A stretch of 64,000 nt of DNA from contig JAUYKG010000016.1 of assembly GCA_030700105.1 (NCBI GenBank), positions 2,863-66,862 on the forward strand, in the 5' to 3' direction. This DNA comes from Candidatus Veblenbacteria bacterium. GTDB lineage: Bacteria; Patescibacteriota; Patescibacteriia; Veblenbacterales; UBA10138. Both the position numbers and the translations under genes were made by a program. Positions 1-43,370 of this stretch are shown one piece after another. The notes beneath the pieces are model-generated. The model did not search any database. It was not told where the DNA came from and was given only the letters and a program-made list of their open reading frames with translations. Position 1 is the stretch's first letter. The number at the start of each line of letters is the position of its first letter.

Positions 1-3000
1 CAGCCGAGACAAGTTCAGTGGTGCCAGAAGAAGCATCAGCCGATAGTCCGGCCGGAGCAGACCTGCCAGCAGTTCAAGAATCGGAGCTGCCGCTGTTCCA
101 CCTGCGCTTAGCGCTTGGTGGCACCGAATGGCAGCCCTTAGTGGATGTGCCGGTGAGCGTGGGTGCCGAATTACCCGGTGAAGTAGTTTTGCCTTTGTCG
201 GTGCTGGATAATTTGGAGGCTGTGCAGATTGCGCTGGTGGCCCCCAGGCGCGAAGAGGCGTCCATGTATGTGTATTTGGACGCACTGGCTATCGAGGTGG
301 ACTACAAAACAGATTTGTTTACTCCTTTACGGCAACTGGTCCAGCAAAACGATGCCGTGGCCACGGAGTCGTTGGAAATGCCGGCTAATCTGGTGTTTAA
401 TGTGGCAACCACTGATTTTGCCGCTGACGAGGATGTGGTTTTTGATTTGGATTATACGGTGGAACTTATGGGCTTGGGGTACGTGAGGGAGCGTAGTGCT
501 TCAGCTGAAAGCGATAACCTTGTCCCGGATTTTACGATTATTGAGGAAGAGACCACGCCAGCAACGGAGAAAGAGCAGTCTGCCGATATCGTGCCTGAAC
601 CAGGCGAGCAAACATCAAGCGAGACATCTACGAGCGAGGAGTCTACTATTCCCGAGCCCAGTGAGGCATCATCCAGCCCGGAATCTTCAGCCCCGACAGA
701 AACGCCAATCCAAATAGAGCCGCCGGTGCCAGAGGTAGTGCCTGCTCAGACGTCTGAAACTCCGCCCGCCACCATTGAACCACCAGTCCAAGAAGAGGTG
801 CCAATTTCAGTAGGCTCTAAGCCGTGGCGGTCGTTGGTCTTAATCGCTCCAGCGGCGGCGGCCGACACTAAGATTGATATCGTTTCCGCCCAGGTTACAT
901 ACCAGGGCGCGCAGCAGCCGGATCTGGTGCCGGTAATGGAAGAAGTGGGAGCGAGCCAGCGTCTAAAGCTTCCGCGCCCCAGTAACTCGTTCCGTCCCGG
1001 CGCGTACCACCTGGTCGTGGAGCTGACGGATGGGCAAACAACAGTGCAGGTGAGCCAGGATTTTACCTGGGGAGTTTTAGCTATTAACACGAATAAGTCG
1101 GTGTACCAGCCGGGTGAGACCGCGTATTTACAAATGGCGGCGTTGGATGATGCCGGACATACTTTGTGCGAGGCTAATTTACAGATCGCCATTACCTCGC
1201 CCGCAGGGGAACAAGTTACGCTACTAGTAAGCGACGGTAGCATTAGTTTAAGTCCTACCTGCGGCCCGGACAATGTAACAGATGAGCCGGATTACTTTGC
1301 TCGCTACCCGTTGGCTGAGGCGGGTACCTACCGCCTTACGCTTACCAACCTGGACACTGGGCACGGGATAACAGGCGAGGTGGAGGTATGGCAGAGCGTA
1401 CCCTATGTAGTGGAACGCGTAGGGGCTACGCGTATAAACCCTTTTAAGAGCAAGTACCGCATGACGCTTCTAGTAACCGCGCTAGACGGATTTAACGGAG
1501 AACTGCGTGAGGTGGTGCCGGAGGGTTTTGAGGTGGAAGCAGAGACTGGCGGCGAGGTGCGGGCCGGCGAGCAGGGCAGCGTGGTGGCGTGGCGTTTGGA
1601 GCTTGAGCCGGGTGAGAATGCTCAGGTGGCGTATGTATACCAAGCACCCGAGGAGTCTCCACAATTTTACCTTTTGGGCCCGGCTGAGCTGGGCGAACCA
1701 TCATTCCCCCTGGGGCAGTTCTTTGGAGTGTTTGGTGATGTGGTGTTTAATGAAACGCGGCAGTGGCAACTGGCCTCTGATGCCGCTTGGTACTCCGCCA
1801 GTTGGTCCTACCGGGTCAAAGTAACTGTGCAAAATGCCGAGGTGGATGCTGACCTGACGAATTTTCCTGTTTATGTGAACTTGGCGAACTTGCCTGCAGG
1901 ATTTCATACCAACGTCAACCAGACTGATGCCCGGGACATCAGGGTGACAAAATCCGACGGTACTACCGAGCTGGCCCGTGAAGTGGTGTTTTATACCGCC
2001 GCATCTGATACAGGCGAGCTTCATTTCCTGGCTAATTCTTTAGCTAATGCTTCTGATACAGATTTCTATATCTATTATGGAAATGCGGGAGCTTCAGATT
2101 ATGGAGTAACTGATACCTATGGCAGGAATGCCGTATGGGCGGGATATGTGGGAGTTTTTCATTTTAACGAATCATCTGGCGGAGCGGGAGCAATCATAGA
2201 TTCCAGTGGTACAGGGAATGATGCGACTGATACAAATAGTCCGACGTTCGCACAAGCGGGTCAATTAGGAAAATCTATTTATTTCAATGGTGGTACAACA
2301 TTTCCATATATCCGAATAGGAAGCACAAGTCTTTCTTTAACAGATTTCACCATATCTTCTTGGATGAAGTTGATGACTGGCACCACAGAGAATAACGAGA
2401 TGCTTGATTATATAGCTGGAACTGCACCTGACCGTATTCTTATCCGTCCAATAGCAGAATATTTAAAAGTCAACGGAACAACAAAACAAGGAGTCGTAAC
2501 CGCAGACAATAGAGATGCGTGGCATTATTTTGCTTTAACGAAAAACAATTCAACCCCCCTCGCAGAGTATTTCAGGGATGCAATATCAGTAACGACTTTT
2601 GCTTTTACTGCGGGAGCTTCAGATTATGCAGCAACATACGCTGGGGCAAGGTCGTACCACTCTATTTTTTATGAAGATGAGCTTCGTATTAGAACAACGG
2701 TATCGTCAGACGAATGGCTCGCCGCTGAATATTCAAACCAAAACACGCCCACAACATTTTATGCGGTGGGGGCGGAGGAGACCCCCCTCCGCGTCCAAGG
2801 CGTGGTCTATATGGCCAATGAGAGCACCTTGGGTACTTCAGGCAATAGCGGCCCTTGTGATGGCAGTACCGCGGTCATCTCCATACGCATCAATGGGGGT
2901 ACCGCAGCCACGGGCTCGTGTAACGCTACCACGGCAGCCTTTGACATTACCGCTGTTTCAGCCGCCGCTTCCGGCGACACCATCACCGTCTACCTCACCT

Positions 3001-6000
3001 CCACCATGAAAGCCAACACGGTCTATGTCTCGGACGGCAACGCTGATACGGGCATAGACCTGTACGAGAACACGCTCGTGGTGGGGCACGTGAACGCTGG
3101 CCCTGCTACCATTCTCGACCTCCTTGACTACGACAGTACGACCAATAACACTGATATGCTGTTTGACGCCGTGGACGCCACCCCCGACACCTTAACTGTG
3201 GAAGACGGGGTAGAGCTCCACGTACGCACCGCAGAAACCCTGACCCCTGGGGGCACCGTCACCACCTCGTCCTCCTCAAATGGTGCTGATACCAATAAAG
3301 ACGGGGATATCCACATAGATGGCACGGGTACCCTTAGTATGGGTACTAACACCCTCTCGGTCGGTGGGGACTTTAACAATGAAGGCACTTTTTCTAAATC
3401 AACCGGCCAAACCACCACCTTCACCGCTGCCGCCACTGGCCACACTATTACGGACGGGGGAGAGAACTTTGACTCCGTCGCCTTTAACGGTTCGGGCGGT
3501 CCCTGGTACTCCTCCTCCTGGCCCTATCGCGTTAAGGTAACCATTCAAAACACCGAGGTTGACGCTGATCTAACGAGCTTCCCGGTCTACGTCAACCTAG
3601 CCAATTTACCAGCTGGTTTCCACACCAACGTCAACCAAACAGACGCGCGGGACATCAGGGTCACCAAAGCCGACGGCACCACGGAACTGGCCCGAGAAGT
3701 CATGTTCTATACCGCCGCTTCGGACACGGGAGAACTACACTTTCTCGCCGACGCTCTTTCCAATGCCTCTGATACCGATTTCTATATCTACTATGGCAAT
3801 GCGGCTGCGTCTGACTATGCCGTTACGGATACCTATGGCAGAAATGCGGTGTGGGGAGATTACGAAGGTGTTTGGCATTTGAACGAAGCAAGTTCAACCA
3901 GAGTAGATTCCAGCGGGAACGGGAATGATATGACCGATAACAATACCGTTTTATCAGCCGCTGGAAAGCTGGCTGGAAACGGAGCAGATTTTGAAACTTC
4001 CGTCCCAGAATATCTTTCCCGAACCGATGCTAATTTGAGCGCAGGATTTCCTGGTAAAAACGGTACTACACCAGCGGCACTCACTGTTTCTTGGTGGTTC
4101 AAACTGGAATCTTTCGTTACGACAAATGTGATGAATATGATTGCCAAGAATGCCACTACGGAAAATCCATATTTTGGGTATGTATATCCTACAGCTGGGA
4201 ATGATTTTCGGGCACAATTAAGTACTACCATTGCCTCGGCTGCCGATTCTGTGACTTCGGCTGGTGTATGGTATAGAGGAGCTTTGGTATGGGATGGAGC
4301 AGATGCTCAAACTTATATAGACGGCGTGGCAAGCGGTTCATCTGTTTCGGTTTCGTCTGTTCCAACAAATACAGGAAGCCTTTGGTTTGGAACAAGAGGA
4401 AGCTTAGGCACAACCCGTTCTATGGATGGCGTCATTGATGAGATTCGTATCCAAGTCATTGACCGCTCTGCCGACTGGGAAGCCGCCGAATACAGCAACC
4501 AGAGTGCCTCAGCCACGTTTTACAGCGTAGGGGAACAGGAAGGGGCCTGGTATAATGCCAGTTGGGATTATCGGGTAAAAGTAACCATTCAAAATGGTGA
4601 GGTGGACGCCGATCTCACCAGCTTCCCGGTTTACGTCAACCTAGCCAATTTACCAGCTGGTTTCCACACCAACGTCAACCAAACAGACGCGCGGGACATC
4701 GGGGTCACCAAAGCCGACGGCACCACGGAACTGGCCCGTGAAGTCGTGTTCTATACCGCCGCCTCTGATACGGGTGAGCTCCACTTCCTGGCTGACTCCC
4801 TGTCTAATACTGTTGATACTGATTTCTACATCTATTACGGCAACGCCGCTGCCTCTGACTATGCCGTTACCGATACCTATGGCAGAAATGCGGTGTGGGC
4901 AAATCATCTTGCAGTTTATCACTTGGCTGATACCCCAACGGGAAGCGCGGGAGACATAACCGACTCATCGGGGAATGGGAAGCATATGACCTCTGTCAAT
5001 ATGGACAGTGGGAATGTGGTGGCTGGGGCTTGGGGCACTGCTTTGGCCTTTAACGGTACAGACGAGTATGCGCTTATTGCAGAGGCACTTAACGCCACAC
5101 TTCCCGCATCGGTCACTGCAATTGTTAAGCCAACGGATGTTGGGGCAGCAACGGAACGATACTTTTTCTCAACTGCGAAGTCAACCGATGACCTTAACGA
5201 ACAAGTTGCAGGTATAAGGAATACCGATACATATATAACACTCACAAGAGGAGGAGCCCCCAGTGCAGTTGCGGAATCAACGATAGATATGACAGACGAC
5301 GCATATGCTCACGTGGCAAGCGTTTGGACTTCAGCAACGAGCAGAGCGGCATATCTTGATGGTGCAAATAAGGGGACAAACACCACATCAAAAACCGCTG
5401 CTGGGCTTGATAGGAGTGCGATTGGCGTTCGTGCGCGGTCTTCACTTGGAGCATATTGGGAGGGAGAGATTGATGAAATTCGTCTTTACGACGGAACATT
5501 GTCTGACCAATGGATAGCTGCCGAGGCCAGCAACCAGAACACGCCTACTACTTTCTACAGTGTGGGGTCAGTCGATGGTTCTAGCGGTGGCTGGTCCTTT
5601 GCTGACAGCACCACTATAGACGTGGACCTTACCCTGACCGCCGGTACCCTCTCCGGCACCCAAGACCTCACCGTGAACGGAGGAGACGTTACTGGCGACG
5701 GGGACATTAACCTTACTGGTGGTACCTTCCTCTTAGATGGAGCCTCTACCACTGGTTTTGGTGGCGCTACCGCCTGGGACTTTAACAACCTTACCCTGGG
5801 GGATGGTACGGGTACTACGACCACGACCGCAATAGGAGCGGGCGGTGTGACGGTGGCTGCTACGCTCACTATTGCTGCTAACCAAACGCTTGATATGAAC
5901 ACGAACGATCCGCCTCTGGATGTGAATGGTGCTGTTTCCATTAGTGGTACTCTCACTGCTTCGCAAACCGCCGTTTTCTCCGTGGCAGGGGACTTTACCA

Positions 6001-6854
6001 ACAACGGCACCTTCAATAACTCCTCGGGCACCGTTACCTTTGACGGTGCTGGCACCAGTACATTCAACGGTTCCAGCGCTCCGGCCATTACTTTCCACCA
6101 CTTCACCTCCACGACGGCTGGCAAGGTCCTTTCCTTTACCGAGGCCAAAACATTCCGTATTAACGGTGTTCTTACCATCCGCGGCTCCAGCGGCAACCAA
6201 ATTACCATTCGTTCCACTTCAGCCTCCAACCAGTGGCTCATTAACCACCAAGGTACGGAGAGCGTTCAGTACGCAGCCATTTATGATTCAGGGTGCGATG
6301 GCTCAAGTACCTACATTTCTCTGGACAACACCTCCAGTGACGGCGACGGTAACAACGGTACCTGCTGGCTGTTCCCCAGTTTGTCCTTCACCCTCAGCTC
6401 CACTTCAGCCAGCTTAGATTTGAACAGTGCTAATACCTTTACCACCACTGCCTCCACCACGCTCACGGTTACGGCCCGCTCGGCCTTTGGCTACCAGGGT
6501 TACGCTAAACAAACGGATAACCTGAGGCATACCGCCGACGCAGGTATCACCATAGCCGATTGGACCGGCACCAATGCTTCTCCCACGGTATTTAACGAGA
6601 CGTGCATAGCCAACGGTGCTAAGTGCGGGTGGGGGTACAACACGAACGATGCTGGCCTTACCCAGTTCGTGGATTCAACGTACTATGCCGGTTTTGTGCA
6701 GAGCACTACGGGCCCGGGCGATATCGTAGCCACGGCTTCGGGCCCAGTATCGTCCGACGCGACTATTATCACCTATCGTGCCAGCGTGGCTATGACGCAG
6801 GCCGCCGGGCCGTACCAAACAACGGTGGTTTATATAGTTACACCGCAATTCTAG
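1..6854 (+). CDS. Giant secreted/surface protein, 5'-truncated (>2278 aa here). It has three DUF2341-like + LamG-like modules, beta-helix-like G/T-rich repeats, and a conserved C-terminal domain shared with the 8477..9751 product.
   Basis: The ORF at 18..6854 has a reading frame that stays open to the window edge, so the true start is probably upstream. A ~120-aa module appears three times: 'SWxYRVKVT(I/V)QNxEVDADLTxFPVYVNLANLPAGFHTNVNQTDARDI(R/G)VTKxDGTTELAREVxFYTAASDTGELHFL...DTDFYIYYGNA'. Each copy is followed by a LamG/ConA-like segment ending 'DEIRI/ELRI...W(L/I)AAEYSNQ'. The C-terminus 'YRASVAMTQAAGPYQTTVVYIVTPQF' matches the C-terminus of the 424-aa neighbour. Confidence 0.8.
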   Translation, partial: AETSSVVPEEASADSPAGADLPAVQESELPLFHLRLALGGTEWQPLVDVPVSVGAELPGEVVLPLSVLDNLEAVQIALVAPRREEASMYVYLDALAIEVDYKTDLFTPLRQLVQQNDAVATESLEMPANLVFNVATTDFAADEDVVFDLDYTVELMGLGYVRERSASAESDNLVPDFTIIEEETTPATEKEQSADIVPEPGEQTSSETSTSEESTIPEPSEASSSPESSAPTETPIQIEPPVPEVVPAQTSETPPATIEPPVQEEVPISVGSKPWRSLVLIAPAAAADTKIDIVSAQVTYQGAQQPDLVPVMEEVGASQRLKLPRPSNSFRPGAYHLVVELTDGQTTVQVSQDFTWGVLAINTNKSVYQPGETAYLQMAALDDAGHTLCEANLQIAITSPAGEQVTLLVSDGSISLSPTCGPDNVTDEPDYFARYPLAEAGTYRLTLTNLDTGHGITGEVEVWQSVPYVVERVGATRINPFKSKYRMTLLVTALDGFNGELREVVPEGFEVEAETGGEVRAGEQGSVVAWRLELEPGENAQVAYVYQAPEESPQFYLLGPAELGEPSFPLGQFFGVFGDVVFNETRQWQLASDAAWYSASWSYRVKVTVQNAEVDADLTNFPVYVNLANLPAGFHTNVNQTDARDIRVTKSDGTTELAREVVFYTAASDTGELHFLANSLANASDTDFYIYYGNAGASDYGVTDTYGRNAVWAGYVGVFHFNESSGGAGAIIDSSGTGNDATDTNSPTFAQAGQLGKSIYFNGGTTFPYIRIGSTSLSLTDFTISSWMKLMTGTTENNEMLDYIAGTAPDRILIRPIAEYLKVNGTTKQGVVTADNRDAWHYFALTKNNSTPLAEYFRDAISVTTFAFTAGASDYAATYAGARSYHSIFYEDELRIRTTVSSDEWLAAEYSNQNTPTTFYAVGAEETPLRVQGVVYMANESTLGTSGNSGPCDGSTAVISIRINGGTAATGSCNATTAAFDITAVSAAASGDTITVYLTSTMKANTVYVSDGNADTGIDLYENTLVVGHVNAGPATILDLLDYDSTTNNTDMLFDAVDATPDTLTVEDGVELHVRTAETLTPGGTVTTSSSSNGADTNKDGDIHIDGTGTLSMGTNTLSVGGDFNNEGTFSKSTGQTTTFTAAATGHTITDGGENFDSVAFNGSGGPWYSSSWPYRVKVTIQNTEVDADLTSFPVYVNLANLPAGFHTNVNQTDARDIRVTKADGTTELAREVMFYTAASDTGELHFLADALSNASDTDFYIYYGNAAASDYAVTDTYGRNAVWGDYEGVWHLNEASSTRVDSSGNGNDMTDNNTVLSAAGKLAGNGADFETSVPEYLSRTDANLSAGFPGKNGTTPAALTVSWWFKLESFVTTNVMNMIAKNATTENPYFGYVYPTAGNDFRAQLSTTIASAADSVTSAGVWYRGALVWDGADAQTYIDGVASGSSVSVSSVPTNTGSLWFGTRGSLGTTRSMDGVIDEIRIQVIDRSADWEAAEYSNQSASATFYSVGEQEGAWYNASWDYRVKVTIQNGEVDADLTSFPVYVNLANLPAGFHTNVNQTDARDIGVTKADGTTELAREVVFYTAASDTGELHFLADSLSNTVDTDFYIYYGNAAASDYAVTDTYGRNAVWANHLAVYHLADTPTGSAGDITDSSGNGKHMTSVNMDSGNVVAGAWGTALAFNGTDEYALIAEALNATLPASVTAIVKPTDVGAATERYFFSTAKSTDDLNEQVAGIRNTDTYITLTRGGAPSAVAESTIDMTDDAYAHVASVWTSATSRAAYLDGANKGTNTTSKTAAGLDRSAIGVRARSSLGAYWEGEIDEIRLYDGTLSDQWIAAEASNQNTPTTFYSVGSVDGSSGGWSFADSTTIDVDLTLTAGTLSGTQDLTVNGGDVTGDGDINLTGGTFLLDGASTTGFGGATAWDFNNLTLGDGTGTTTTTAIGAGGVTVAATLTIAANQTLDMNTNDPPLDVNGAVSISGTLTASQTAVFSVAGDFTNNGTFNNSSGTVTFDGAGTSTFNGSSAPAITFHHFTSTTAGKVLSFTEAKTFRINGVLTIRGSSGNQITIRSTSASNQWLINHQGTESVQYAAIYDSGCDGSSTYISLDNTSSDGDGNNGTCWLFPSLSFTLSSTSASLDLNSANTFTTTASTTLTVTARSAFGYQGYAKQTDNLRHTADAGITIADWTGTNASPTVFNETCIANGAKCGWGYNTNDAGLTQFVDSTYYAGFVQSTTGPGDIVATASGPVSSDATIITYRASVAMTQAAGPYQTTVVYIVTPQF
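1790..2150 (+). repeat. Intragenic module repeat copy 1 (DUF2341-like), the most diverged copy.
   Basis: A DNA/protein repeat of the module also found at 3500..3880 and 4550..4925. Confidence 0.7.
3500..3880 (+). repeat. Intragenic module repeat copy 2.
   Basis: Positions 3591..3694 match 4635..4738 over 104 nt with one mismatch. Confidence 0.8.
4550..4925 (+). repeat. Intragenic module repeat copy 3.
   Basis: Near-identical to copy 2 over long stretches. Confidence 0.8.
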
Positions 6855-32482: not shown

Positions 32483-34444
32483 ATGAAGACTACATTCAAT
32501 AAACCACCAGGTGAGGTGGAGGAACTTGACATTACACTCATTCGTGCCACCAACTACACAGATGATGGGTATCCAATACGTACGCGCAAGGGAGTTATCC
32601 GCAGTAATACGTTGACTCAAATGGCCACTTTGGTGCGTGATTTGCCTAGGTATCCTTTTTTTAAGGATTTAAGTATTAAAGTAAATCTTATTGACGAAGC
32701 TGTTCAGCTTGTACCCCTGAAGAGGATATTAAAACGGTCTCGGGTAAAGGGCGTAAAGGTTATAGTTCTAATGGTTGGTGTGCAGACCTGCCAGTACCCA
32801 AGGGCCTTGGATATCGCAAATTGGTTTCTACCACATGGCATCCCGGTTCTTATTGGTGGTTTCCACGTGAGTGGGATGCTGAGCATGATTGGCCAAACCA
32901 AAGATCTTACGGCGGCCATGGATAAGGGTGTAATTCTCGTTGCTGGTGAGGTTGAGGGTGATAGGCTACCCACGATTATAGAAGAGGTTGTGCTCGGTAG
33001 AGCCCGAAAACTCTATAATTATTTGAACCCGACGCCGGATCTCACCGATTTGCCAGTGCCTTTACTAACTCGGGAAGATTTAAAGCATTTTGCTTCGCCT
33101 TTCAGCACCATTGATAGCGGGCGCGGCTGTGTGTACACATGTAAGTTCTGTACCATTATAAACGTGCAGGGCAAAATCATGCGATATAGGGAACCAGCAC
33201 AGATAAAGGAGTTTGTTCGTCAGAACTATCATTCTACAGGGATTAGTCATTGTTTCTTTACGGATGATAATATGGCGCGCAATCCACGCTGCCGTGAGCT
33301 TTTTGGAGAGCTGGCTGAACTACGCGAGGAAGAGGGTATTCCCTTTACTTTTATGATGCAGGCGGACTTGGCAGCCAGAAGGATTAAGCCGGGTAATTTT
33401 TTTGAGCTAGCGGCCAGAGCCGGATGTAACCAAGTCTTTTTGGGCCTTGAGACCATGAATCCGCTTAACCTGAGAGCCGAAAGTAAATACCAGAATCGGG
33501 TAGGTGATTACGCTGATTTGGTCCAGCACTGTAATTCGTTGGGTATAACCTGCCATGCGGGCTACATTATTGGTTTTGAGTTTGATACCAGGGATAGTAT
33601 CCGTGAGGACATTGAGAAGTTAAAGGGGATTGGTTTTAATTCAGCTTCCTTTTACATTATTACACCTTTACCGGGGTCCGAGGATCACCAAACTTGGTAC
33701 CGGGAAGGCAAATGGATGCACCCTGATTTCAATACTTACGATTCCAATCATGTCGCAGTTCTGCCCAAAAGCATGTCGGTAGAAGAATTAGCACAAACTC
33801 ACCAGGATGTTTGGGAGTGGTTCTATACCACCGAACATATGGCCAGTGTGCTCAAGGGTTGGCGCGAAAATAATAAACACTATTGGGGACAGTTGTTTTT
33901 TTACGCCTGGTATTTGTACGCCTCGCGAATTGAGCGACTTCATCCTATGAACTGCGGTTTCTGGACCGTGCGGCAGCGCAAGGGGCGCCGCCCAGGCTTC
34001 CCCAGAGAAGCGTTCATACCTTTCTGGTGGGGGAGGGCAGTGGCTGCTGGGCAGCGTCTGAGTGGGCTTGTGAAGCTATTCTTCCAGTTGGAAGAGGTGT
34101 GGCTCCGCAGCAGACCAGAAAGCAAGGCGGAGCAAGCTCTCCATGAATTAATGGTTAATACCAGGAAAGATTTTGCTGATTGGCGAGATGTCACGATCGG
34201 TGAGCTAGCTGCGTTATACCGTAAGTTACACGCGGACATGCCAGACGTAAGGATTCCGTCAGGTGTAAGCTTGTGGTTAAAAAAACATATTGCCTGGGCT
34301 CATTCAAGAATGCATGCTGATTATATATGGCGTCATTGGTATAAACACTTCTGGAACCCATTTAGTTGGATGGAAGTCTGGCTGTTTGAAATCATTAATG
34401 GCTCACGCTTCCTCCTTCGGTTATTAACCGAAGGAACCAGATAA
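32483..34444 (+). CDS. B12-binding-domain radical SAM protein (class B rSAM) with a W/R-rich C-terminal extension.
   Basis: N-terminal Rossmann-like cobalamin-binding region ('VKVIVLMVGVQTCQ...IPVLIGGFHVS') and an rSAM cluster 'GRGCVYTCKFC' (CxxxCxxC). A ~250-aa C-terminal extension is rich in W and R. GC content and codon usage are lower than in the neighbouring genes. Confidence 0.7.
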   Translation: MKTTFNKPPGEVEELDITLIRATNYTDDGYPIRTRKGVIRSNTLTQMATLVRDLPRYPFFKDLSIKVNLIDEAVQLVPLKRILKRSRVKGVKVIVLMVGVQTCQYPRALDIANWFLPHGIPVLIGGFHVSGMLSMIGQTKDLTAAMDKGVILVAGEVEGDRLPTIIEEVVLGRARKLYNYLNPTPDLTDLPVPLLTREDLKHFASPFSTIDSGRGCVYTCKFCTIINVQGKIMRYREPAQIKEFVRQNYHSTGISHCFFTDDNMARNPRCRELFGELAELREEEGIPFTFMMQADLAARRIKPGNFFELAARAGCNQVFLGLETMNPLNLRAESKYQNRVGDYADLVQHCNSLGITCHAGYIIGFEFDTRDSIREDIEKLKGIGFNSASFYIITPLPGSEDHQTWYREGKWMHPDFNTYDSNHVAVLPKSMSVEELAQTHQDVWEWFYTTEHMASVLKGWRENNKHYWGQLFFYAWYLYASRIERLHPMNCGFWTVRQRKGRRPGFPREAFIPFWWGRAVAAGQRLSGLVKLFFQLEEVWLRSRPESKAEQALHELMVNTRKDFADWRDVTIGELAALYRKLHADMPDVRIPSGVSLWLKKHIAWAHSRMHADYIWRHWYKHFWNPFSWMEVWLFEIINGSRFLLRLLTEGTR

Positions 34445-36153: not shown

Positions 36154-36840
36154 ATGCCAAGACGGAGTAAGCGTTATCAGGCTGCTGCCAAACTGTTGGA
36201 GCCTGGCAAAACGTACACAATTGCGGAGGCGGTAAAGATTATTAAGCAGATGCCCGCCACCAAGTTTGATGCGGCGGTGGAGGTGCACGCTAAATTGGGT
36301 GTGGATGTAAAGCAGGCCAATCAACAGGTGCGGGGCAGCGTCAGCTTGCCGCACGGTACGGGCAAGAAGATTCGCATCGCCGTGTTTTGTGGCGAGGATA
36401 AGGCGAAAGAGGCCAAGGCAGCTGGTGCCGCAGTGGTTGGTGGGGAGGAATTGGTGAAAGAGATACAAGCCACGGGCAAGTGCGATTTTGATATTGCCAT
36501 AGCCGCGCCCGATATGATGAAGCAACTGGCACCCATTGCCAAGATTTTGGGACAGAAGGGCCTCATGCCCAACCCCAAGACCGAAACTATTACGCCGAAC
36601 GTGGCTGATGCGGTGGGCAAGCTACAGGCGGGCAAGGTGAATTTTAAAGCTGATGACACCGCCAATGTGCACATTATGGTGGGCAAGCTCTCGTTCGAGG
36701 AAGATAAGCTGGTGGGGAACATTGGGGCCTTGGCTGAGGTCTTAAAACGCATCCGCCCGGCGGCGACCAAAGGCACATACCTGCAGCGCGTCGTGCTGGC
36801 TACCTCTATGGGTCCGGCCGTGCCCATTAGCCTGGCCTAG
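36154..36840 (+). CDS. rplA: 50S ribosomal protein L1.
   Basis: 'SVSLPHGTGKKIRIAVF' and 'FDIAIAAPDMMKQLAPIAKILGQKGLMPNPK'. Confidence 0.95.
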   Translation: MPRRSKRYQAAAKLLEPGKTYTIAEAVKIIKQMPATKFDAAVEVHAKLGVDVKQANQQVRGSVSLPHGTGKKIRIAVFCGEDKAKEAKAAGAAVVGGEELVKEIQATGKCDFDIAIAAPDMMKQLAPIAKILGQKGLMPNPKTETITPNVADAVGKLQAGKVNFKADDTANVHIMVGKLSFEEDKLVGNIGALAEVLKRIRPAATKGTYLQRVVLATSMGPAVPISLA

Positions 36841-36900: not shown

Positions 36901-37461
36901 ATGATCCTTTCCGACCGCGATATTAAGGCAGCCTTGAAAGAGGGGAGAATAGGCGTGGAGCCTCTGTATGAGGGTGCCATTCAGCCGGCTTCGGTTGATT
37001 TGCACCTGGATAATAAGTTCCTCATCTTTCGCAATACCGAGCATGCCTTTATCGACGTGAAGGAGCCCATTGCCGACCTCATGGAAGAGGTGGTTATAGA
37101 TTCCAATCGTCCATTCGTTATTCACCCCGGTGAATTTGCGCTTGGGGTAACCGAGGAGAAAATTACACTGGCGGCGGATATGGTGGCTCGTCTGGAAGGC
37201 AAATCCAGCCTGGGGCGCATTGGCATTATCATTCACGCCACAGCAGGATTTATTGATCCAGGTAACTCCTTAAGGCCTACGCTTGAGCTTCATAATATAG
37301 GTAATCTTCCTGTGAAGCTGTATTACAAGATGCCCATAGCCCAAATTGCTTTCATGCCTTTGTCTTCACCAGCTGAGCACCCCTACGATAAGTCCCACAA
37401 ATACTACGGCGCCACCGAACCGCAAGCCTCTAAGATGCACGAGAATTTTGAAAAGGAGTAA
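36901..37461 (+). CDS. dcd: dCTP deaminase.
   Basis: 'MILSDRDIKAALKEGRIGVEPL...ASVDLHL' and 'RLEGKSSLGRIGI' follow the dCTP deaminase/dUTPase-fold pattern. Confidence 0.8.
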   Translation: MILSDRDIKAALKEGRIGVEPLYEGAIQPASVDLHLDNKFLIFRNTEHAFIDVKEPIADLMEEVVIDSNRPFVIHPGEFALGVTEEKITLAADMVARLEGKSSLGRIGIIIHATAGFIDPGNSLRPTLELHNIGNLPVKLYYKMPIAQIAFMPLSSPAEHPYDKSHKYYGATEPQASKMHENFEKE

Positions 37462-37467
37462 AAAGCC

Positions 37468-38064
37468 ATGACGCGCTCCAAGCCGCTACGTCGTTCTCGA
37501 GGAATAACCAGTCCGGTCGTGGTTGTTTTTGTAGGGGAAAAGCTTTCCGGCAAAGAGCAGGCCGCGCAGTACCTGGTGAAAAAGTATGGTTTCCACGGCT
37601 ATCACTTTTCCCGCATTCTCACAGACATTCTGCAACGGCTTCATCTACCTGTGAGTCGGATGAATCAAATGCACCTGGTGGGCGCTTTGCGTGAGCGTTT
37701 TGGCGGTGGTGTACTGGCCGAGGTTATTAAACAGGACATTCTTAAGCACGGCTATAAGCGCGTAGTGCTGGACGGTCTTAGGCACCCGGCCGAATATGAT
37801 GCGCTAAAAGTATTACCAGGCTTCCTCTTGGTGTATCTTACTGCTCCGCTTAACGTACGTTACCAGCGAGCGCGCCAGCGCCGAGAAAAGGCCGGAGAGC
37901 ACCGCCTGAGCCTGCAGGACTTTAAGCGGGAGGAAAAGTTGGTAACCGAGGTATTTATTAGTAAGTTAGGCCACAAGGCTAAGGTTAAAGTGGTGAACGA
38001 GGGCAGTTTATCCGAGCTTTATCATAGGCTTGAGGAAGAGCTAGTTAAACCGTACCTGCTGTGA
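37468..38064 (+). CDS. P-loop nucleoside-monophosphate-kinase-like protein (adenylate/cytidylate kinase fold). Its substrate is unknown; a (d)NMP kinase is suggested by context.
   Basis: A glycine-rich loop 'VVVFVGEKLSGKEQAAQYL', a 'VLDGLRHPAEYDAL' segment like the DGFPR region of NMP kinases, and a basic LID-like 'RYQRARQRREKAG'. It sits between dcd and dut. Confidence 0.4.
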   Translation: MTRSKPLRRSRGITSPVVVVFVGEKLSGKEQAAQYLVKKYGFHGYHFSRILTDILQRLHLPVSRMNQMHLVGALRERFGGGVLAEVIKQDILKHGYKRVVLDGLRHPAEYDALKVLPGFLLVYLTAPLNVRYQRARQRREKAGEHRLSLQDFKREEKLVTEVFISKLGHKAKVKVVNEGSLSELYHRLEEELVKPYLL

Positions 38065-38483
38065 AGCTCGAAGTAAAAAAACTGGATCCCCGCGCCAAGC
38101 TGCCGGTTTACTTTTTTCCGGGTGATGCGGGGCTAAACCTGTTTGCGGTGGAGGATGTGGTTATTCCTGCTCACGAACGCGTAATGATAACGACTGGGCT
38201 CTCGCTGGCTGTACCAGGGGGGTATGTTGGGTTGGTGCACGATCGGTCCAGCATGGCGGCCAAGGCTGGGGTGCACGCTCTGGCTGGCGTTATAGATGCC
38301 GGGTTTAGGGGCGAGTTTAAACTCGTTTTTCTGAATACCAGCAACGATGATTACAAAATATCGGCCGGAGACAAAGTGGCACAGTTTTTAATCCAGCCGG
38401 TGGAACGGGTGGAAGTGGTGGAGGTAGAGGAGCTTCCGCCTACCGAAAGGGGGGCGGGTGGTTTTGGCAGCACAGGTAAGTAA
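38061..38483 (+). CDS. dut: dUTP diphosphatase.
   Basis: dUTPase motifs 'AGLNLFA', 'GLVHDRSS' and 'GVIDAGFRGEFKLVFLN', plus a C-terminal Gly-rich 'RGAGGFGSTGK'. Confidence 0.9.
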   Translation: MKLEVKKLDPRAKLPVYFFPGDAGLNLFAVEDVVIPAHERVMITTGLSLAVPGGYVGLVHDRSSMAAKAGVHALAGVIDAGFRGEFKLVFLNTSNDDYKISAGDKVAQFLIQPVERVEVVEVEELPPTERGAGGFGSTGK

Positions 38484-38485
38484 AA

Positions 38486-38513
38486 AACCTGGGCTTTGAA
38501 AGTCCAGGTTTTT
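38486..38513. terminator. Bidirectional intrinsic terminator between the convergent dut and PNP genes.
   Basis: AAAAAA, then a 7-bp stem (AACCTGG / CCAGGTT) with an 11-nt loop, then TTTTT. Confidence 0.55.
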
Positions 38514-38536
38514 AGTTTGGATAGGTTATTTGGGGC

Positions 38537-39412
38537 TTACTGGGCCCCGACAGTTTCTTCGCAATGAGCCACAGCTGACGCTACACCTGTGAGTAGCTTG
38601 ATGTTATCTTCTTTATGCTGTTCCATTCGGTTTTTGTTCAATTGGTGGGAATCCTTTTCTAACCAATCGTTTGAGATAAACGCCAGCGCCAAGACCTCCA
38701 TAGGGGGATACTGTGCGGCAACGGCGGCTTCGGTTAAGATGCTCATACCAACACAGCAAGCGCCATCTCTATGGAGAATATCTTTATCGCGTTTTCTTCC
38801 TTCCAAATCCGGTCCGCAAACCATAGCATAGGTGCCATTCTTCCACCAGCGTCGTGTTGGGTAGCTTGTTTGAGCGATCTTAATAAGATCAGGTGACAGT
38901 GCGTCTTCTGCCGAGTTGAATTCTCCGCCGAACAGCGGCCTTTTCGGTGCATACAGAGTGATAAAACCATCGATAAGGACAACGTCGCCAACTTCAGGAT
39001 GTAATCCCCCCCTAATGCCGATACTGCCAGCGGCGCAGGTCAGAATAAGTTTTTTAACCCCCATATAAGGTAGCATCTCAATTTGTAGCCTAACCATTTT
39101 AATAAGTTCAGGGTTCATTATGGTTTCATTCATGTGGAAGCGGCCATTCAAGACTAAGATTGGTTCGCCGTCAACGTAGCCAAGCTGGATTGTTCGAGCA
39201 TGGCCATCAAGGCCAGGAAGATTAGATACCTCTGGCAGAGGTAGCCAGTGGAATGGTACGGGTTCTTTTTTCGGTGGGGTATCAAAAACAATAGTATTAT
39301 TTAATCCTGTCCCAAGGACTATAGCTGTTGAAACCTCCTCTATTTTAAAGTAATTTTTTAAGTACTTGGCAGCTATTTCGGCTGCTGTGGCGGCAGATTG
39401 TTTTGTATACAT
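38537..39412 (-). CDS. Purine nucleoside / methylthioadenosine phosphorylase family protein (PNP/MTAP trimeric family).
   Basis: 291 aa with 'IVLGTGL', 'LVLNGRFHMNE' (compare the GRFH.YEG motif of PNP) and 'AFISNDW'. Confidence 0.55.
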   Translation of the reverse strand: MYTKQSAATAAEIAAKYLKNYFKIEEVSTAIVLGTGLNNTIVFDTPPKKEPVPFHWLPLPEVSNLPGLDGHARTIQLGYVDGEPILVLNGRFHMNETIMNPELIKMVRLQIEMLPYMGVKKLILTCAAGSIGIRGGLHPEVGDVVLIDGFITLYAPKRPLFGGEFNSAEDALSPDLIKIAQTSYPTRRWWKNGTYAMVCGPDLEGRKRDKDILHRDGACCVGMSILTEAAVAAQYPPMEVLALAFISNDWLEKDSHQLNKNRMEQHKEDNIKLLTGVASAVAHCEETVGAQ

Positions 39413-39500
39413 AATATTTCTCCTATATTTTGTTTATGATTTGTTTGTTTTGTGATTTGGGGCTATCTTACAGGAGTATACGCTAACCAGTCAATTTGCC

Positions 39501-40424
39501 ATGCAGCAATACTTAAGCCTTTTGGAGGAAATATTGGAAAAAGGGGAAGAGCGCCAGGACCGTACCGGTGTGGGCACCATTTCCTTGTTTGGCGCGCAGC
39601 GTAAGTACGACCTGCGCCAGGGCTTCCCTTTGGTTACCACCAAAAAGGTTAACTTCCGTAATATCGCGGTGGAATTGTTGTGGTTTTTGCGGGGCGATAC
39701 GCACATTCGTTACCTGGTGCAGAACGGCGTAAACATCTGGAACGAATGGGCGTTTCAGGTGTACCTGGATGAGAATAAGCTGGCGGAAAAGTTCCAGCGC
39801 TACAGTGAGGAGTGGAAAGTGGAAATGCAGAAATTCGTGGACCAAGTGCGTGAGAGCGAGGAATTCGCCCAAAAGTGGGGCGAGCTCGGGCCGGTGTACG
39901 GCAAGCAGTGGCGGCGTTGGGGTACGGCCGACGGCAGGGAGATAGACCAGATAGCTCAGGCCTTGGAACTCATTAAGAAAGATCCGTACTCACGGCGCAT
40001 TATCGTAAACGGTTGGAACGTAGGAGAAATGCAGGGGCTTATTAAGGCCAAACACCACGCGCCGCCTTCTTGCCACACTGTGTTCCAGTTCTACGTAGCA
40101 GGCAGTCGCTTGGACTTGCAGCTTTACCAGCGTAGTGCCGATATGGCCTTGGGAGTGCCCTACAACATCGCTTCGTACGCCGCTCTGTTAACGGTTATGG
40201 CGCAGGAGACTGGGCTTACACCAGGTATTTTCACACACACCCTGGGTGACGCGCACATTTACCTTAATCACGTAGAAGGGGTAAGGGAGCAGCTTACGCG
40301 TCAGCCGTACCCATTGCCGGGCCTTATGCTCGCTCGTAAACCAATGGCAGAGCTTGGGGCCGATGATTTTGTGATAGAGAACTACCAATTTCACCCCTTT
40401 ATTAAGTTCCAGATAGCGGTGTAG
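39501..40424 (+). CDS. thyA: Thymidylate synthase (ThyA, long form with an insert).
   Basis: '[11 protein letters not shown]', 'FPLVTTKKV', '[10 protein letters not shown]', the active-site 'PPCH' in '[14 protein letters not shown]', and 'DAHIYLNH'. Confidence 0.9.
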
Positions 40425-40425
40425 T

Positions 40426-40932
40426 ATGGCATTCTCGGTGATTGCAGCGATGGACAGCAAGCGGGGTGTAGGCAAGGGAGGTGTGATACCCTGGCGGCTT
40501 AAGGGCGATTTGGAGCACTTTCGAGAAATTACGGTTGGCCAGGGTAAGAACGCGGTTATTATGGGCCGCGCCACCTGGCTCTCGTTACCGGAGAAGTTCA
40601 GGCCCTTGTCGGGGCGAGTGAATGTCGTGCTTAGCCGGGGCCCGCTTGAACTGCCAGCTGGAGTACTGCACGCCGGTTCACTCCCAGAGGCGCTTGAGCT
40701 TTTTGCGGGCCAACCTATAGAGGAAATTTTTATCATAGGCGGCGGGCAGGTGTACGCTGAGGCCATTGGGCACCCGGCTTGCAAAAAAATTTATCTTACG
40801 GAAGTGGATGGTGAGTTTGGTTGTGATACGTTCTTTCCGGAAATTCCAGCCATGTTCCAGCGTGCCAGTACATTGGAGCCTATGAGTGAAGGAGAATTTA
40901 AGTATCGGTTCGTTACCTATGAAAAGGCCTAA
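40426..40932 (+). CDS. folA: Dihydrofolate reductase.
   Basis: 'VIAAMDSKRGVGKGGVIPWRLKGDLEHFREITVG...VIMGRATWLSL' and 'IFIIGGGQVYAEA'. Confidence 0.9.
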   Translation: MAFSVIAAMDSKRGVGKGGVIPWRLKGDLEHFREITVGQGKNAVIMGRATWLSLPEKFRPLSGRVNVVLSRGPLELPAGVLHAGSLPEALELFAGQPIEEIFIIGGGQVYAEAIGHPACKKIYLTEVDGEFGCDTFFPEIPAMFQRASTLEPMSEGEFKYRFVTYEKA

Positions 40933-41605
40933 ACGCGGTACGTTCATAGTTATAGAGGGCACCGACGGTTCGGGCAAGGGCACGCAGTTCAAACTGCTGG
41001 TGGCGGCTTTACGGCGAGCGGGAAAAAAGGTGGCTACGCTGGATTTTCCACAGTACGGCAAGCCATCGGCCTATTTTATTGAACAATACCTAAACGGGAA
41101 ATACGGAAAGAACGGTGACGTTTCACCATATGAAGCTTCACTTTTTTATTCTTTTGATAGGTATGCTGCCAAGCGGCAGCTCGTGGAGTGGTTACGAGAG
41201 GGAAGGGTAGTAGTTGCGAATCGCTTCACACTTTCAAATGCGGCGCACCAGGGCGGTAAGATACAATCGGATTCAGCCCGGCGTAAGTACTGGCAGTGGC
41301 TGTTTAATTTGGAGTTTAATGTTTTAGGTTTGCCCAGGCCGGACGTTACTATTTTTCTTCATATGCCAGCGGTTACGGCACAGAAGTTGGTATTGCGTAA
41401 GGCCCCGCGCCGGTACCTTAAGCTTGGTGTAAAAAAGGATATTCACGAGGCAGATTTGAGGCATCTTAAGGCTGCGGAGAAACAGTACGTAATTCTTGCT
41501 AGGAAAGTCGGGGCGAGAACGGTTGAATGTGTGGAAAAGGGTAGACTCTTGACGTCAAAGGAGATTCATAATAGGGTTCTAAGCATAATAATAAAATTAC
41601 TATAG
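40919..41605 (+). CDS. tmk: Thymidylate kinase.
   Basis: P-loop 'FIVIEGTDGSGKGTQ'. Start taken at 'MKRPKRG', overlapping the folA end by 14 nt. Confidence 0.85.
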   Translation: MKRPKRGTFIVIEGTDGSGKGTQFKLLVAALRRAGKKVATLDFPQYGKPSAYFIEQYLNGKYGKNGDVSPYEASLFYSFDRYAAKRQLVEWLREGRVVVANRFTLSNAAHQGGKIQSDSARRKYWQWLFNLEFNVLGLPRPDVTIFLHMPAVTAQKLVLRKAPRRYLKLGVKKDIHEADLRHLKAAEKQYVILARKVGARTVECVEKGRLLTSKEIHNRVLSIIIKLL

Positions 41606-41633: not shown

Positions 41634-41813
41634 ATGAAAAAAATAAAAAAGAAAAAGCATAGTATGCGGGCGCGGCGGCGTTATCTTACGAAACGCATCA
41701 TGGATGCTTTTCGTAACCTTAATGAGGCTGCTTGGGCCTTTCGCAATTTAGATTTTAGTCTTCATGAATTAAAGGATGAACCCGATCTTTCTGGGTTTGT
41801 CCGTATAATATAA
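41634..41813 (+). CDS. Small, highly basic 59-aa ORF (hypothetical).
   Basis: 'MKKIKKKKHSMRARRRYLTKRIMDAFRNLNEAAWAFRNLDFSLHELKDEPDLSGFVRII'. It is preceded by a GTGAGGA Shine-Dalgarno-like sequence and followed by its own intrinsic terminator. It is below the ORF-track size cutoff. Confidence 0.35.
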   Translation: MKKIKKKKHSMRARRRYLTKRIMDAFRNLNEAAWAFRNLDFSLHELKDEPDLSGFVRII

Positions 41814-41834: not shown

Positions 41835-41866
41835 CTCAGCCTTTTAATCAGGCTGAGCTTTTTTAT
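41835..41866 (+). terminator. Intrinsic terminator.
   Basis: An 8-bp stem (CTCAGCCT / AGGCTGAG) with a 7-nt loop, followed by CTTTTTTAT. Confidence 0.65.
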
Positions 41867-41912: not shown

Positions 41913-43370
41913 ATGGAACTAGTCCCCGTTATTGGTTTGGAAATACACGTTCAGCTTAAGACCAAGTCCAAAATGTTCTGCCCGTGCGACAACACGGGCG
42001 AGGACAAGCCTGCCAATACCACCATTTGCCCGGTGTGTATGGGGCACCCAGGCACCTTGCCGGTACCGAATGCCGAGGCTATTAGCATGGCCGTGCGGGC
42101 GGCCTTGGCACTGAATTTTAAGGTTAATACCCGCTCCAAGTTCGACCGCAAGAACTACTTTTATCCCGATTTGCCCAAGGGTTATCAAATCTCCCAGTAC
42201 GACGAGCCGTTGGCCCAAGAGGGCTACCTGGAGGTGGAGGCCAGTCAGGGGCTAAGCAGGGTTGAGCTGGAACGGCTACACTTGGAGGAGGATACGGCTA
42301 AGCTCACGCACCAAGGTAAGAAGTCTTTAGTGGATTTCAACCGTGCTGGCACGCCCTTAATGGAAATAGTTACCAAGCCAGAGATTAAAAATCCGGAAGA
42401 GGCTAAGATATTCTTGCAGGAACTCAGGCTGATTATGCGCTACGTTGGAGCCTCTGATGCAGATATGGAAAAGGGGCACTTACGGTGCGATGCCAACATA
42501 TCTTTACACCCCAAGGGTGAGGACAAGCTATACCCCAAGACCGAGATTAAGAACCTAAATTCTTTTCGGGCTGTGGAAAAGGCTTTGCAGTATGAGGTTA
42601 AGAGGCAGGGTGAATTGTGGCGTAAAGGAGAAGCGCCTGCAATTACAGCTACACGCGGCTGGGACGAGGCTAAGGGCGAAACCGTACCGCAGCGAGAAAA
42701 AGAGGCCGTGCACGATTACCGCTATTTTCCTGAGCCGGATATTCCGCCACTCGTTATAGACCAGAAAAAAGTAGAGGAGTGGCGCGCGGAACTTCCCGAA
42801 CTGCCAGCTGATAGGCGCCGGCGCTGGCAGGTAACTTACGACACCAAACCTGCCGATGCTCGGCTATTAACGGAAGACAAGGCTTTGGGCGATTTTGCCG
42901 AGCATGTGATAGTTGAATTGGCGGCTGAGGTCGAAGGCAGTTTAGGACCAACCGCTAAGCTAGCGGTGAACTGGATCGTGCACAAGCTTACTGAAGTATT
43001 GCGGGAGCGTGGCTTGGCGGTTAACCAGCTGCCGTTCACAGTGAGCCAGTTTGTGGCGTTCCTGTTGCTAGTGTCGCGTCGGCAGGTGAATTCTACGAAC
43101 GGGCAGCTTCTCTTGCGGCGTATGGTGGAAACCGGGCACGACCCCGAGGTAATTATGGCCGAGGAGGACCTGGCTCAAGCCGCTGGCGGCGAGGGCCTAG
43201 CCGAGGCGGTTACCAGGGTGGTGAACGCTCACGCTGAGCAAGTTCAGGATTATCACAAAGGAAAAACAGCCTTGCTTAAGTTCTTTGTTGGTTTGGTGAT
43301 GAAGGAGCTTAAAGGTAAGGCCGATCCTCAGGAAATAGAGCAGGAGTTCAAGAACCAGCTTGGTGCTTAG
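41913..43370 (+). CDS. gatB: Asp-tRNA(Asn)/Glu-tRNA(Gln) amidotransferase subunit B.
   Basis: 'VIGLEIHVQLKTKSKMFC' and 'DANISL...NLNSFRAVEKAL', with a C-terminal YqeY-like domain. Confidence 0.9.
   Translation: MELVPVIGLEIHVQLKTKSKMFCPCDNTGEDKPANTTICPVCMGHPGTLPVPNAEAISMAVRAALALNFKVNTRSKFDRKNYFYPDLPKGYQISQYDEPLAQEGYLEVEASQGLSRVELERLHLEEDTAKLTHQGKKSLVDFNRAGTPLMEIVTKPEIKNPEEAKIFLQELRLIMRYVGASDADMEKGHLRCDANISLHPKGEDKLYPKTEIKNLNSFRAVEKALQYEVKRQGELWRKGEAPAITATRGWDEAKGETVPQREKEAVHDYRYFPEPDIPPLVIDQKKVEEWRAELPELPADRRRRWQVTYDTKPADARLLTEDKALGDFAEHVIVELAAEVEGSLGPTAKLAVNWIVHKLTEVLRERGLAVNQLPFTVSQFVAFLLLVSRRQVNSTNGQLLLRRMVETGHDPEVIMAEEDLAQAAGGEGLAEAVTRVVNAHAEQVQDYHKGKTALLKFFVGLVMKELKGKADPQEIEQEFKNQLGA

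Follow-up and report, generated by a model that had tools for sequence, protein, structure and literature searches.

Proteins related to the one described here are known from phage defense and from archaea. In anti-phage dCTP deaminases, a zinc deaminase carries a predicted kinase domain at its N terminus, and mutation of the nucleotide-binding motif abolishes dCTP depletion, although kinase activity was not described (Tal et al., 10.1101/2021.04.26.441389); Vibrio AvcD has been reported to deaminate both dCTP and dCMP (PMC10511110). The archaeal proteins of arCOG01045 (UPF0200) are present in nearly all archaea, and two of them, TK1334 and TK2192, lack dephospho-CoA kinase activity (PMC6650551). 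Here we describe a 198-amino acid protein encoded at 37468..38064 on the plus strand of a 64,000-nucleotide stretch from a Candidatus Veblenbacteria bacterium (GCA_030700105.1, contig JAUYKG010000016.1; the whole stretch is hereafter the window), where its gene lies between those for dCTP deaminase (dcd) and dUTPase (dut) in a thymidylate synthesis module. We suggest, at a probability of about one half, that it is an active ATP-dependent (deoxy)nucleoside monophosphate ((d)NMP) kinase of the UPF0200/phage dNMP kinase type, most likely for dCMP and possibly for several dNMPs. A preliminary description of the window had proposed a dCMP/dUMP or deoxynucleoside kinase here; that substrate assignment is inferred from gene context.

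An NCBI protein 100% identical to this one is named only “AAA family ATPase,” and its matches to curated models are limited to sub-threshold Pfam hits (AAA_18 and AAA_17) and the NCBIfam model PRK08356, a “hypothetical protein.” An AlphaFold2 model built on 20 homologs was confident (predicted local distance difference test 89.4, predicted template modeling score 0.82) and contained a parallel-sheet core with NMP-binding and LID segments; from this model we are confident in predicting an NMP kinase fold. Structural scores ran from 20.6 for SSO1041 (3lw7, “adenylate kinase related,” AMP-bound, UPF0200) through 16.1 for human phosphomevalonate kinase and 14.4 for yeast uridylate kinase to about 13–14 for dephospho-CoA kinases and 13.4 for the T4 dNMP kinase. 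Foldseek searches of the PDB placed AK1, AK5, and UMP/CMP kinases next after SSO1041, with no solved AvcD-type structure among the matches, and searches of the viral models in BFVD returned mostly annotated dNMP kinases. At the sequence level, a 50-member family profile recovered SSO1041 at 7e-28 and AK1 at about 1e-7, and PHROG_139, “deoxynucleoside monophosphate kinase,” was matched over its full length at 6e-10. The family is large: a search of 1.8 billion cluster representatives yielded 5,413 at E<=1e-3 and 191 at E<=1e-30, labeled “AAA ATPase” or “dephospho-CoA kinase,” the latter in JGI and UniRef names. We consider the second label probably wrong. The preliminary description had called the protein adenylate/cytidylate kinase-like and had raised dephospho-CoA kinase and shikimate kinase as competing identities; the first characterization agrees with the fold, and the two competing identities were rejected, as no models for them matched and their structural scores fell below those of SSO1041 and the NMP kinases. 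Cytidylate kinase (Cmk) and dephospho-CoA kinase (CoaE) share the P-loop kinase superfamily with the window protein, which nonetheless had no significant match to the models of either (PF02224 and TIGR00017 for Cmk; PF01121 and TIGR00152 for CoaE); its relatives matched the CoaE models only as P-loop fragments below the cut-off. Cmk performs the very reaction that we propose. The protein is thus an uncharacterized member of a known fold.

The nucleotide-binding loop of the protein reads G23-E-K-L-S-G-K-E30, and the preliminary description had singled it out as atypical. The motif is as described, and GEKL[SA]GKE was invariant or nearly so among 20 homologs from the Veblenbacteria/Kerfeldbacteria clade, but it is less unusual than was claimed: in sequences checked against the PDB, an acidic residue also follows the P-loop lysine in T4 gp1 (1dek, GVKRSGKDT) and in human phosphomevalonate kinase (PMVK, 3ch4, GKRKSGKDF). 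Because aspartate occupies this position in two active kinases, the glutamate is no evidence of inactivity. The wider family has an adenylate kinase-like GxxxSGKGT loop, and the Walker A residues G23-x4-G28-K29 (GxxxxGK) were invariant both in 50 sequences and in about 100. Set against 79 sequences from the rest of the family, 21 from the dcd-linked clade differed by G20V, A26L, G30E, D81G, and R106H, while K29, R64, N66, R75, G103, R105, R131, R134, R138, and E140 were conserved in both sub-clades. G30E co-occurs with D81G, and an acidic group may have been relocated here, Glu30 being gained as Asp81 was lost. In a profile alignment to AK1, R134 and R138 fell on the LID motif RLLKRGE (R-x-x-x-R-G-E in the family) and the family motif DG[LM]R (DG-x-R, which includes R105) fell on DGYPR; the LID and hinge arginines for phosphoryl transfer (R105, R131, R134, and R138) are conserved. 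The likeness to AK1 and the Dictyostelium UMP/CMP kinase (1qf9, 1uke) extends to the architecture, to the GxxGxGK(G)T loop of the wider family, and to the LID motif. The short-LID adenylate and UMP/CMP kinases differ in that they were recovered with E-values of only 1e-5 to 1e-8 and have DGFPR in place of DG-x-R; the NMP-binding R44 of adenylate kinase is not found at the aligned position in the window family, where R64 may replace it.

Gene order around the protein is conserved. Combining four exact-protein look-ups with a scan of species-representative genomes, we assembled 22 related loci from Veblenbacteria, Kerfeldbacteria, and unnamed Patescibacteria, some of them in records mislabeled “Gammaproteobacteria.” In all 22, dcd lies upstream of the kinase-like gene and dut follows it, and the order rplA-dcd-kinase-dut continues into thyA, folA, tmk, and gatB as far as the contig reaches, so that the synteny that the preliminary description had proposed to check in relatives is conserved. 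The gene for ribosomal protein L1 was located by tblastn upstream of dcd in every one of these loci, either directly or with one open reading frame (ORF) between. Identity to the window proteins was 50–74% for the kinase, 54–65% for dut, and 54–68% for tmk. As the order recurs in all 22 loci at this level of kinase divergence, the arrangement is not due to chance, and since kinase identity is similar to that of dut and tmk, the protein is under enzyme-like constraint. In the window, the features of the module and its borders are as follows.

36154..36840, plus strand: rplA (ribosomal protein L1), an ORF forming the conserved upstream flank of the module
36901..37461, plus strand: dcd, dCTP deaminase of the dUTPase fold, dCTP to dUTP (PF22769, 149 bits; TIGR02274, 192 bits, cut-off 92.8)
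37468..38064, plus strand: kinase-like gene for the 198-amino acid NMP kinase-fold P-loop protein (UPF0200 / PRK08356 / AvcD N-domain-like family)
37534..37557, plus strand: P-loop G23-E-K-L-S-G-K-E30 of the kinase-like protein (family alignments)
38061..38483, plus strand: dut, dUTPase, dUTP to dUMP and PPi, with a GTG start (PF00692, 99 bits; TIGR00576, 144 bits, cut-off 102.6)
38483..38513, no strand assigned: terminator-like hairpin, bidirectional, with a T-run on each strand (folding energies)
38537..39412, minus strand: divergent nucleoside phosphorylase of the purine nucleoside phosphorylase (PNP)/MTAP family (PF01048 PNP_UDP_1, 74 bits)
39501..40424, plus strand: thyA, thymidylate synthase, dUMP to dTMP (PF00303, 353 bits; TIGR03284, 380 bits; NF002496, 395 bits, cut-off 325)
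40426..40932, plus strand: folA, dihydrofolate reductase (PF00186, 131 bits)
40919..41605, plus strand: tmk, thymidylate kinase, dTMP to dTDP (PF02223, 77 bits, cut-off 27)
41835..41857, plus strand: terminator-like hairpin ending the thyA-folA-tmk unit (-12.7 kcal/mol, z -3.4)
41913..43370, plus strand: gatB, an ORF forming the conserved downstream flank, found after tmk in related loci

Beyond this clade, we gathered 82 further loci of the GKGT-type family through two look-ups and a metagenome scan and determined their gene contexts by ORF calling, clustering, and Pfam checks of the clusters; the neighbor counts refer to the 32 loci in which the kinase is flanked by at least 1.2 kb on each side. 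The typical order was [nusG-rplK-rplA], zinc dCMP deaminase, kinase, ThyA or ThyX, FolA or a RibD_C-type reductase, dut, tmk, and gatB. A dCMP deaminase lay within two genes of the kinase in 25 of the 32 loci, a thymidylate synthase (ThyA or ThyX) was present in 21, and tmk in 20. That the GxxxSGKGT family occurs in thymidylate operons containing ThyA or ThyX, next to a zinc dCMP deaminase, is new. The kinase is the constant element, around which the deaminase, the thymidylate synthase, the type of reductase, and the arrangement of dut have been exchanged, and the ancestral partner of the family is the zinc dCMP deaminase rather than Dcd, a point absent from the preliminary description. The GK-E loop accompanies dcd in 20 of 22 loci and the GKGT loop accompanies dCMP deaminase in 48 loci; the dcd-linked loci form one clade, so this correlation between P-loop and partner counts as one evolutionary event. 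A distant branch with a GTLGAGKGT loop retains only the kinase-deaminase pair, in a non-ribosomal neighborhood (L099-L106).

Several exchanges around the kinase deserve mention as observations in their own right. Two kinase paralogs per locus, usually in tandem and usually just upstream of tmk, were found in L033, L038, L048, L059, L069, L071, L072, L074, L077, L078, L083, and L088, one with a GE[IM]ASGKGT loop and the other with GE[KQ]G[AG]GKG[TA]; these look like a battery of dNMP kinases. In many Patescibacteria, separate tmk and dut genes are replaced by Tmk-dUTPase fusions of 350–430 amino acids (L059:6161-7447, 428 amino acids, P0200; also L027, L054, L060, L069, L074, L077, L083, L088, and L102). 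A long ThyX-type protein (420–504 amino acids) stands in for ThyA in L028, L033, L036, L039, L050, L053, L059-L062, L069, L074, L077, and L081, and in some cases a RibD_C-type reductase takes the place of FolA (e.g., L088:3851-4354). We also came across a 376-amino acid kinase-dUTPase fusion (P0054, L023:102-1232), to which we give almost no weight as Rosetta-stone evidence; it occurs only once, on a contig of 1.3 kb, and may be a frameshift or assembly artifact.

These contexts are consistent with a route in which salvaged dCMP would be converted to dCDP by the 198-amino acid kinase and then to dCTP by Ndk, which is not encoded in the window; the dCTP would either enter DNA or pass through Dcd and Dut to dUMP, and from there through ThyA/FolA and Tmk to dTDP. 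Where the neighbor is a dCMP deaminase, as in the wider family, dCMP would be the branch-point substrate shared by both enzymes, and the kinase would set the split between dCTP and dTTP. We favor an active NMP kinase because the full NMP kinase catalytic set has been kept, because the paralogs cluster with tmk, and because the closest annotated viral relatives are dNMP kinases in clusters of thyA and dihydrofolate reductase genes. It probably acts on its own, since it was kept at neighbor-like conservation after the zinc deaminase gave way to the unrelated Dcd fold.

The viral relatives comprise 12 phage homologs found by tblastn at 23–29% identity, six of whose records are annotated as dNMP kinases. 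One of these homologs, annotated as a dNMP kinase at 150662-151246 of Bacillus phage Mater (L107), sits between thymidylate synthase and dihydrofolate reductase and mirrors the cellular cluster. Phage dNMP kinases resemble the window protein in the full-length PHROG_139 match, in the presence of phage homologs beside thyA and dihydrofolate reductase, and, for T4 gp1, in the acidic residue after the P-loop lysine (GVKRSGKDT against GEKLSGKE). They differ in that identity is only 19–29% and T4 gp1 is 241 amino acids long with insertions, whereas the window protein stays below the Pfam dNMP kinase threshold and has a cellular, chromosomal, housekeeping context. Some family members approach that Pfam model (DNMK, PF21448) at 26–27 bits against a cut-off of 27.1, and the window protein had no match to it at E<=0.01.

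A number of points weigh against the assignment as a (d)NMP kinase. We know of no demonstrated substrate for any bacterial member of the family or any UPF0200 protein. The nearest solved relative, SSO1041, lies among genes for RNA processing rather than thymidylate synthesis; similarity to T4 gp1, the one biochemically characterized dNMP kinase, is weak (E 4e-5 with a broad profile) and confined to the P-loop region; and the missing Pfam DNMK match just described belongs here as well. The changes G30E, T31x, D81G, and R106H, which are specific to the clade of the window, may reflect altered or lost activity. Nor does the logic of the pathway point one way, as a dCMP kinase beside a dCMP deaminase competes for substrate instead of feeding the pathway, and if Cmk is present in these genomes, a second dCMP kinase would be less needed. 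Finally, homology to the N-terminal domain of the anti-phage dCTP deaminases allows a function other than that of a kinase.

This last point leads to the main alternative, namely that the protein binds nucleotides and serves the cytosine-deaminating enzyme as an accessory or regulator, a free-standing equivalent of the AvcD N-terminal domain that senses or presents dCTP, dTTP, or ATP and gates the flux from deoxycytidine to deoxyuridine nucleotides with no metabolic kinase role. With E-values of 1e-6 to 1e-13, GKGT-type members matched NF041025, “anti-phage dCTP deaminase,” over its first ~210 positions, and some relatives matched PADLOC model PDLC02373 at up to 8e-23 (7.4e-7 for the window protein). 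The family and the kinase-like N-terminal domain of AvcD-type enzymes are homologous, a tie unreported before. In both settings, the partner of the homologous domain is a deaminase of deoxycytidine nucleotides, and in the defense enzyme it is the nucleotide-binding motif whose mutation abolishes dCTP depletion with no kinase activity described (10.1101/2021.04.26.441389). Deaminase adjacency is, moreover, the most conserved feature of the family, persisting in the non-ribosomal neighborhoods of the distant branch where no thyA or tmk is nearby, and the single clade whose deaminase fold changed is also the one in which the P-loop went from GKGT to GKE-x. AvcD-type domains differ, though, in being fused to a zinc deaminase that is activated by infection and encoded in defense islands. 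The window protein is a single domain with no C-terminal zinc cytidine/dCMP deaminase domain in its polypeptide; its separate gene is set among ribosomal and tRNA genes, and in its clade the partner is the unrelated dUTPase-fold Dcd. We saw no defense-island or mobile context at the window locus, whose flanks are secE-nusG-rplK-rplA and gatB-miaA-thrS. The family is thus the free-standing housekeeping counterpart of the AvcD-type N-terminal domain, encoded next to a free-standing deaminase. A purely accessory role sits poorly with the conservation of all the arginines expected for phosphoryl transfer, which a pure binding module would not need, and a specific protein-protein partnership is hard to square with a gene that outlived the swap of the zinc deaminase for an unrelated fold. 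The second paralogs adjoin tmk rather than the deaminase, the phage homologs with thyA and dihydrofolate reductase carry dNMP kinase annotations, and the P-loop/partner correlation goes back to only one evolutionary event. We therefore regard the accessory role as possible but doubtful.

Another possibility is that the protein is a deoxynucleoside kinase that converts deoxycytidine, deoxyuridine, or thymidine to the dNMP and so recycles nucleosides released by a neighboring phosphorylase or 5'-deoxynucleotidase. This was part of the context argument of the preliminary description, and it draws on the adjacent slot between dut and thyA, which holds nucleoside phosphorylases or a YfbR-like 5'-deoxynucleotidase, and on sub-threshold, weak matches of some family members to uridine kinase models. 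The best neighbors in structure and sequence are nonetheless NMP kinases with a short arginine-rich LID and not members of the deoxynucleoside kinase or uridine kinase families, and four loci of the dcd-linked clade (L004, L010, L015, and L018) already have a classical thymidine kinase adjoining tmk in addition to the kinase-like gene. We consider this improbable.

The archaeal relatives bear on one further alternative. Full-length similarity to SSO1041 (PDB 3lw7, 3h0k) is significant in both sequence and structure, and homology to archaeal UPF0200 is secure. Unlike the bacterial family, however, the archaeal proteins (SSO1041, PF1294, TK1334, and TK2192) have a P-loop of the GK-S/G-T type, and their genes lie among RNA- and tRNA-processing genes rather than being tied to cytosine deaminases and thymidylate genes. 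In the two archaeal loci examined, those of SSO1041 and PF1294, there were no thymidylate genes nearby. Neighbors of the archaeal gene in Saccharolobus (L108) and Pyrococcus (L109) include a PF01877 RNA-binding protein and an RNase Z-like metallo-beta-lactamase, joined in L108 by the CCA-adding enzyme and a LigT-type (2',5') ligase, so the archaeal branch may have a role connected with RNA. Extension of our context-based prediction to archaeal UPF0200 is unsupported by these two loci, and functional transfer in either direction is unjustified. The least probable of the alternatives is that the bacterial protein works outside deoxynucleotide metabolism, for example as a dephospho-CoA kinase or a kinase of RNA or another small molecule, and owes its cluster position to historical accident: the JGI and UniRef names and the RNA-related archaeal neighborhoods speak for it, but the window protein matched no CoaE model, TK1334 and TK2192 are without dephospho-CoA kinase activity (PMC6650551), and the family has stayed linked to deaminase, thymidylate synthase, and Tmk down to about 30% identity and through the replacement of every neighbor, unlike a chance position.

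A broader and more tentative view concerns the origin of the pairing. The kinase-like protein and an adjacent cytosine deaminase may be an old housekeeping two-protein unit controlling the flux from deoxycytidine to deoxyuridine and thymidine nucleotides; AvcD-type enzymes would then have arisen by fusion of the pair, and in the Veblenbacteria/Kerfeldbacteria clade the unit would have been rewired to the unrelated Dcd, the P-loop changing to match from GKGT to GKE-x. We think this scenario rather unlikely as a whole. A literature search returned nothing useful on UPF0200/SSO1041, on follow-ups of TK1334/TK2192, on an AvcD structure, or on dNMP or cytidylate kinases in Patescibacteria.

The pathway genes around the kinase-like gene, and the module itself, are ordinary and of textbook type. 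All seven ORFs named in the preliminary description lie where it had placed them and match the families that it named, as judged from the ORF list and curated models, and together they encode dCTP to dUTP to dUMP to dTMP to dTDP with dihydrofolate recycling, as it had concluded. Dcd, Dut, ThyA, FolA, and Tmk each scored above the curated cut-off of their own family model, although for Tmk this holds for Pfam only, as it fell below the NCBIfam equivalog cut-offs (TIGR00041, 70 bits against 83). The minus-strand protein reached no equivalog model (PRK08202, 113 bits against a cut-off of 218), and its gene at 38537-39412 is a divergent member of the PNP/MTAP phosphorylase superfamily. The preliminary description had given this convergent gene as part of the module; it is present, but it is not a fixed member, as the content of this opposite-strand salvage slot, located between dut and thyA, varies among relatives. 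The slot holds a trimeric PNP-like gene in the window, L004, L009, and L010, a DeoD-like phosphorylase in L015, L018, and L021, and a YfbR-like 5'-deoxynucleotidase in L001, L003, L011, L014, and others, and it is empty in L005, L006, L016, L017, and L020.

Gene junctions required some correction. The reported overlap of thyA and folA proved mistaken: read from the sequence, the thyA stop TAG (40422-40424) and the folA ATG (40426) leave a 1-nucleotide spacer. The reported 14-nucleotide overlap of folA and tmk holds only if tmk begins at the ATG at 40919 and not at the alternative in-frame GTG at 40886, which is the start in the mechanical ORF list; the ATG gives a protein of 228 amino acids, homologs measure 223–229, and these lengths favor it as the likely start. 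A 6-nucleotide gap separates dcd from the kinase-like gene, with AAGGAG upstream of the kinase ATG, and the kinase-like gene and dut share 4 nucleotides (GTGA, 38061-38064). The hairpin at 38483-38513, between the convergent dut and PNP-family gene, folds at -18.2 kcal/mol on the plus strand (z -5.0) and -13.2 kcal/mol on the minus strand (z -3.9). Given this hairpin and the one at 41835-41857, the module is made up of two co-directional units, dcd-kinase-dut and thyA-folA-tmk, with the opposite-strand salvage gene between them. A 59-amino acid lysine/arginine-rich ORF at 41634-41813 on the plus strand, between tmk and the second hairpin, had no counterpart in any fetched locus; it is probably no conserved gene, and for want of a conserved counterpart we left it out of the module.

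The flanks of the window are ordinary chromosome, with pheS, pheT, gyrB, a radical-SAM gene, secE, nusG, rplK, and rplA upstream of the module and gatB, miaA, a response regulator, thrS, and dnaE downstream. The radical-SAM protein between gyrB and secE has 653 amino acids (32483-34444, plus strand), and a very long ORF of 2,278 amino acids opens the window (18-6854, plus strand). Unannotated ORFs of ~492 amino acids occupy a similar position upstream of nusG in each of L006-L008. Within the dcd-linked clade, Dcd identity to the window protein is bimodal, at 46–48% or 74–92%, when L006, L007, L008, L016, and L017 are compared with the other loci, and these classes do not track kinase similarity, which suggests that dcd may have been replaced by a second dcd lineage in some loci. 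ThyA identity is likewise bimodal, at 34–36% or 51–81%.

Patescibacteria live by scavenging nucleotides. The value of this locus lies less in its pathway genes than in a kinase-like protein with unusually informative gene linkage: strict association with cytosine deaminases and thymidylate synthases turns a widespread patescibacterial gene into a concrete functional prediction that is cheap to test. It also cautions against assigning function by way of archaeal UPF0200, where the relatives sit in a different gene context. For phage defense, the family offers a simpler, single-domain model for the unexplained kinase domain of anti-phage dCTP deaminases, and if it and the adjacent deaminase do form an old two-protein unit, the role of the free-standing protein, whether as a kinase, a nucleotide sensor, or a substrate-presenting subunit, would explain what that essential domain does in the defense enzymes.

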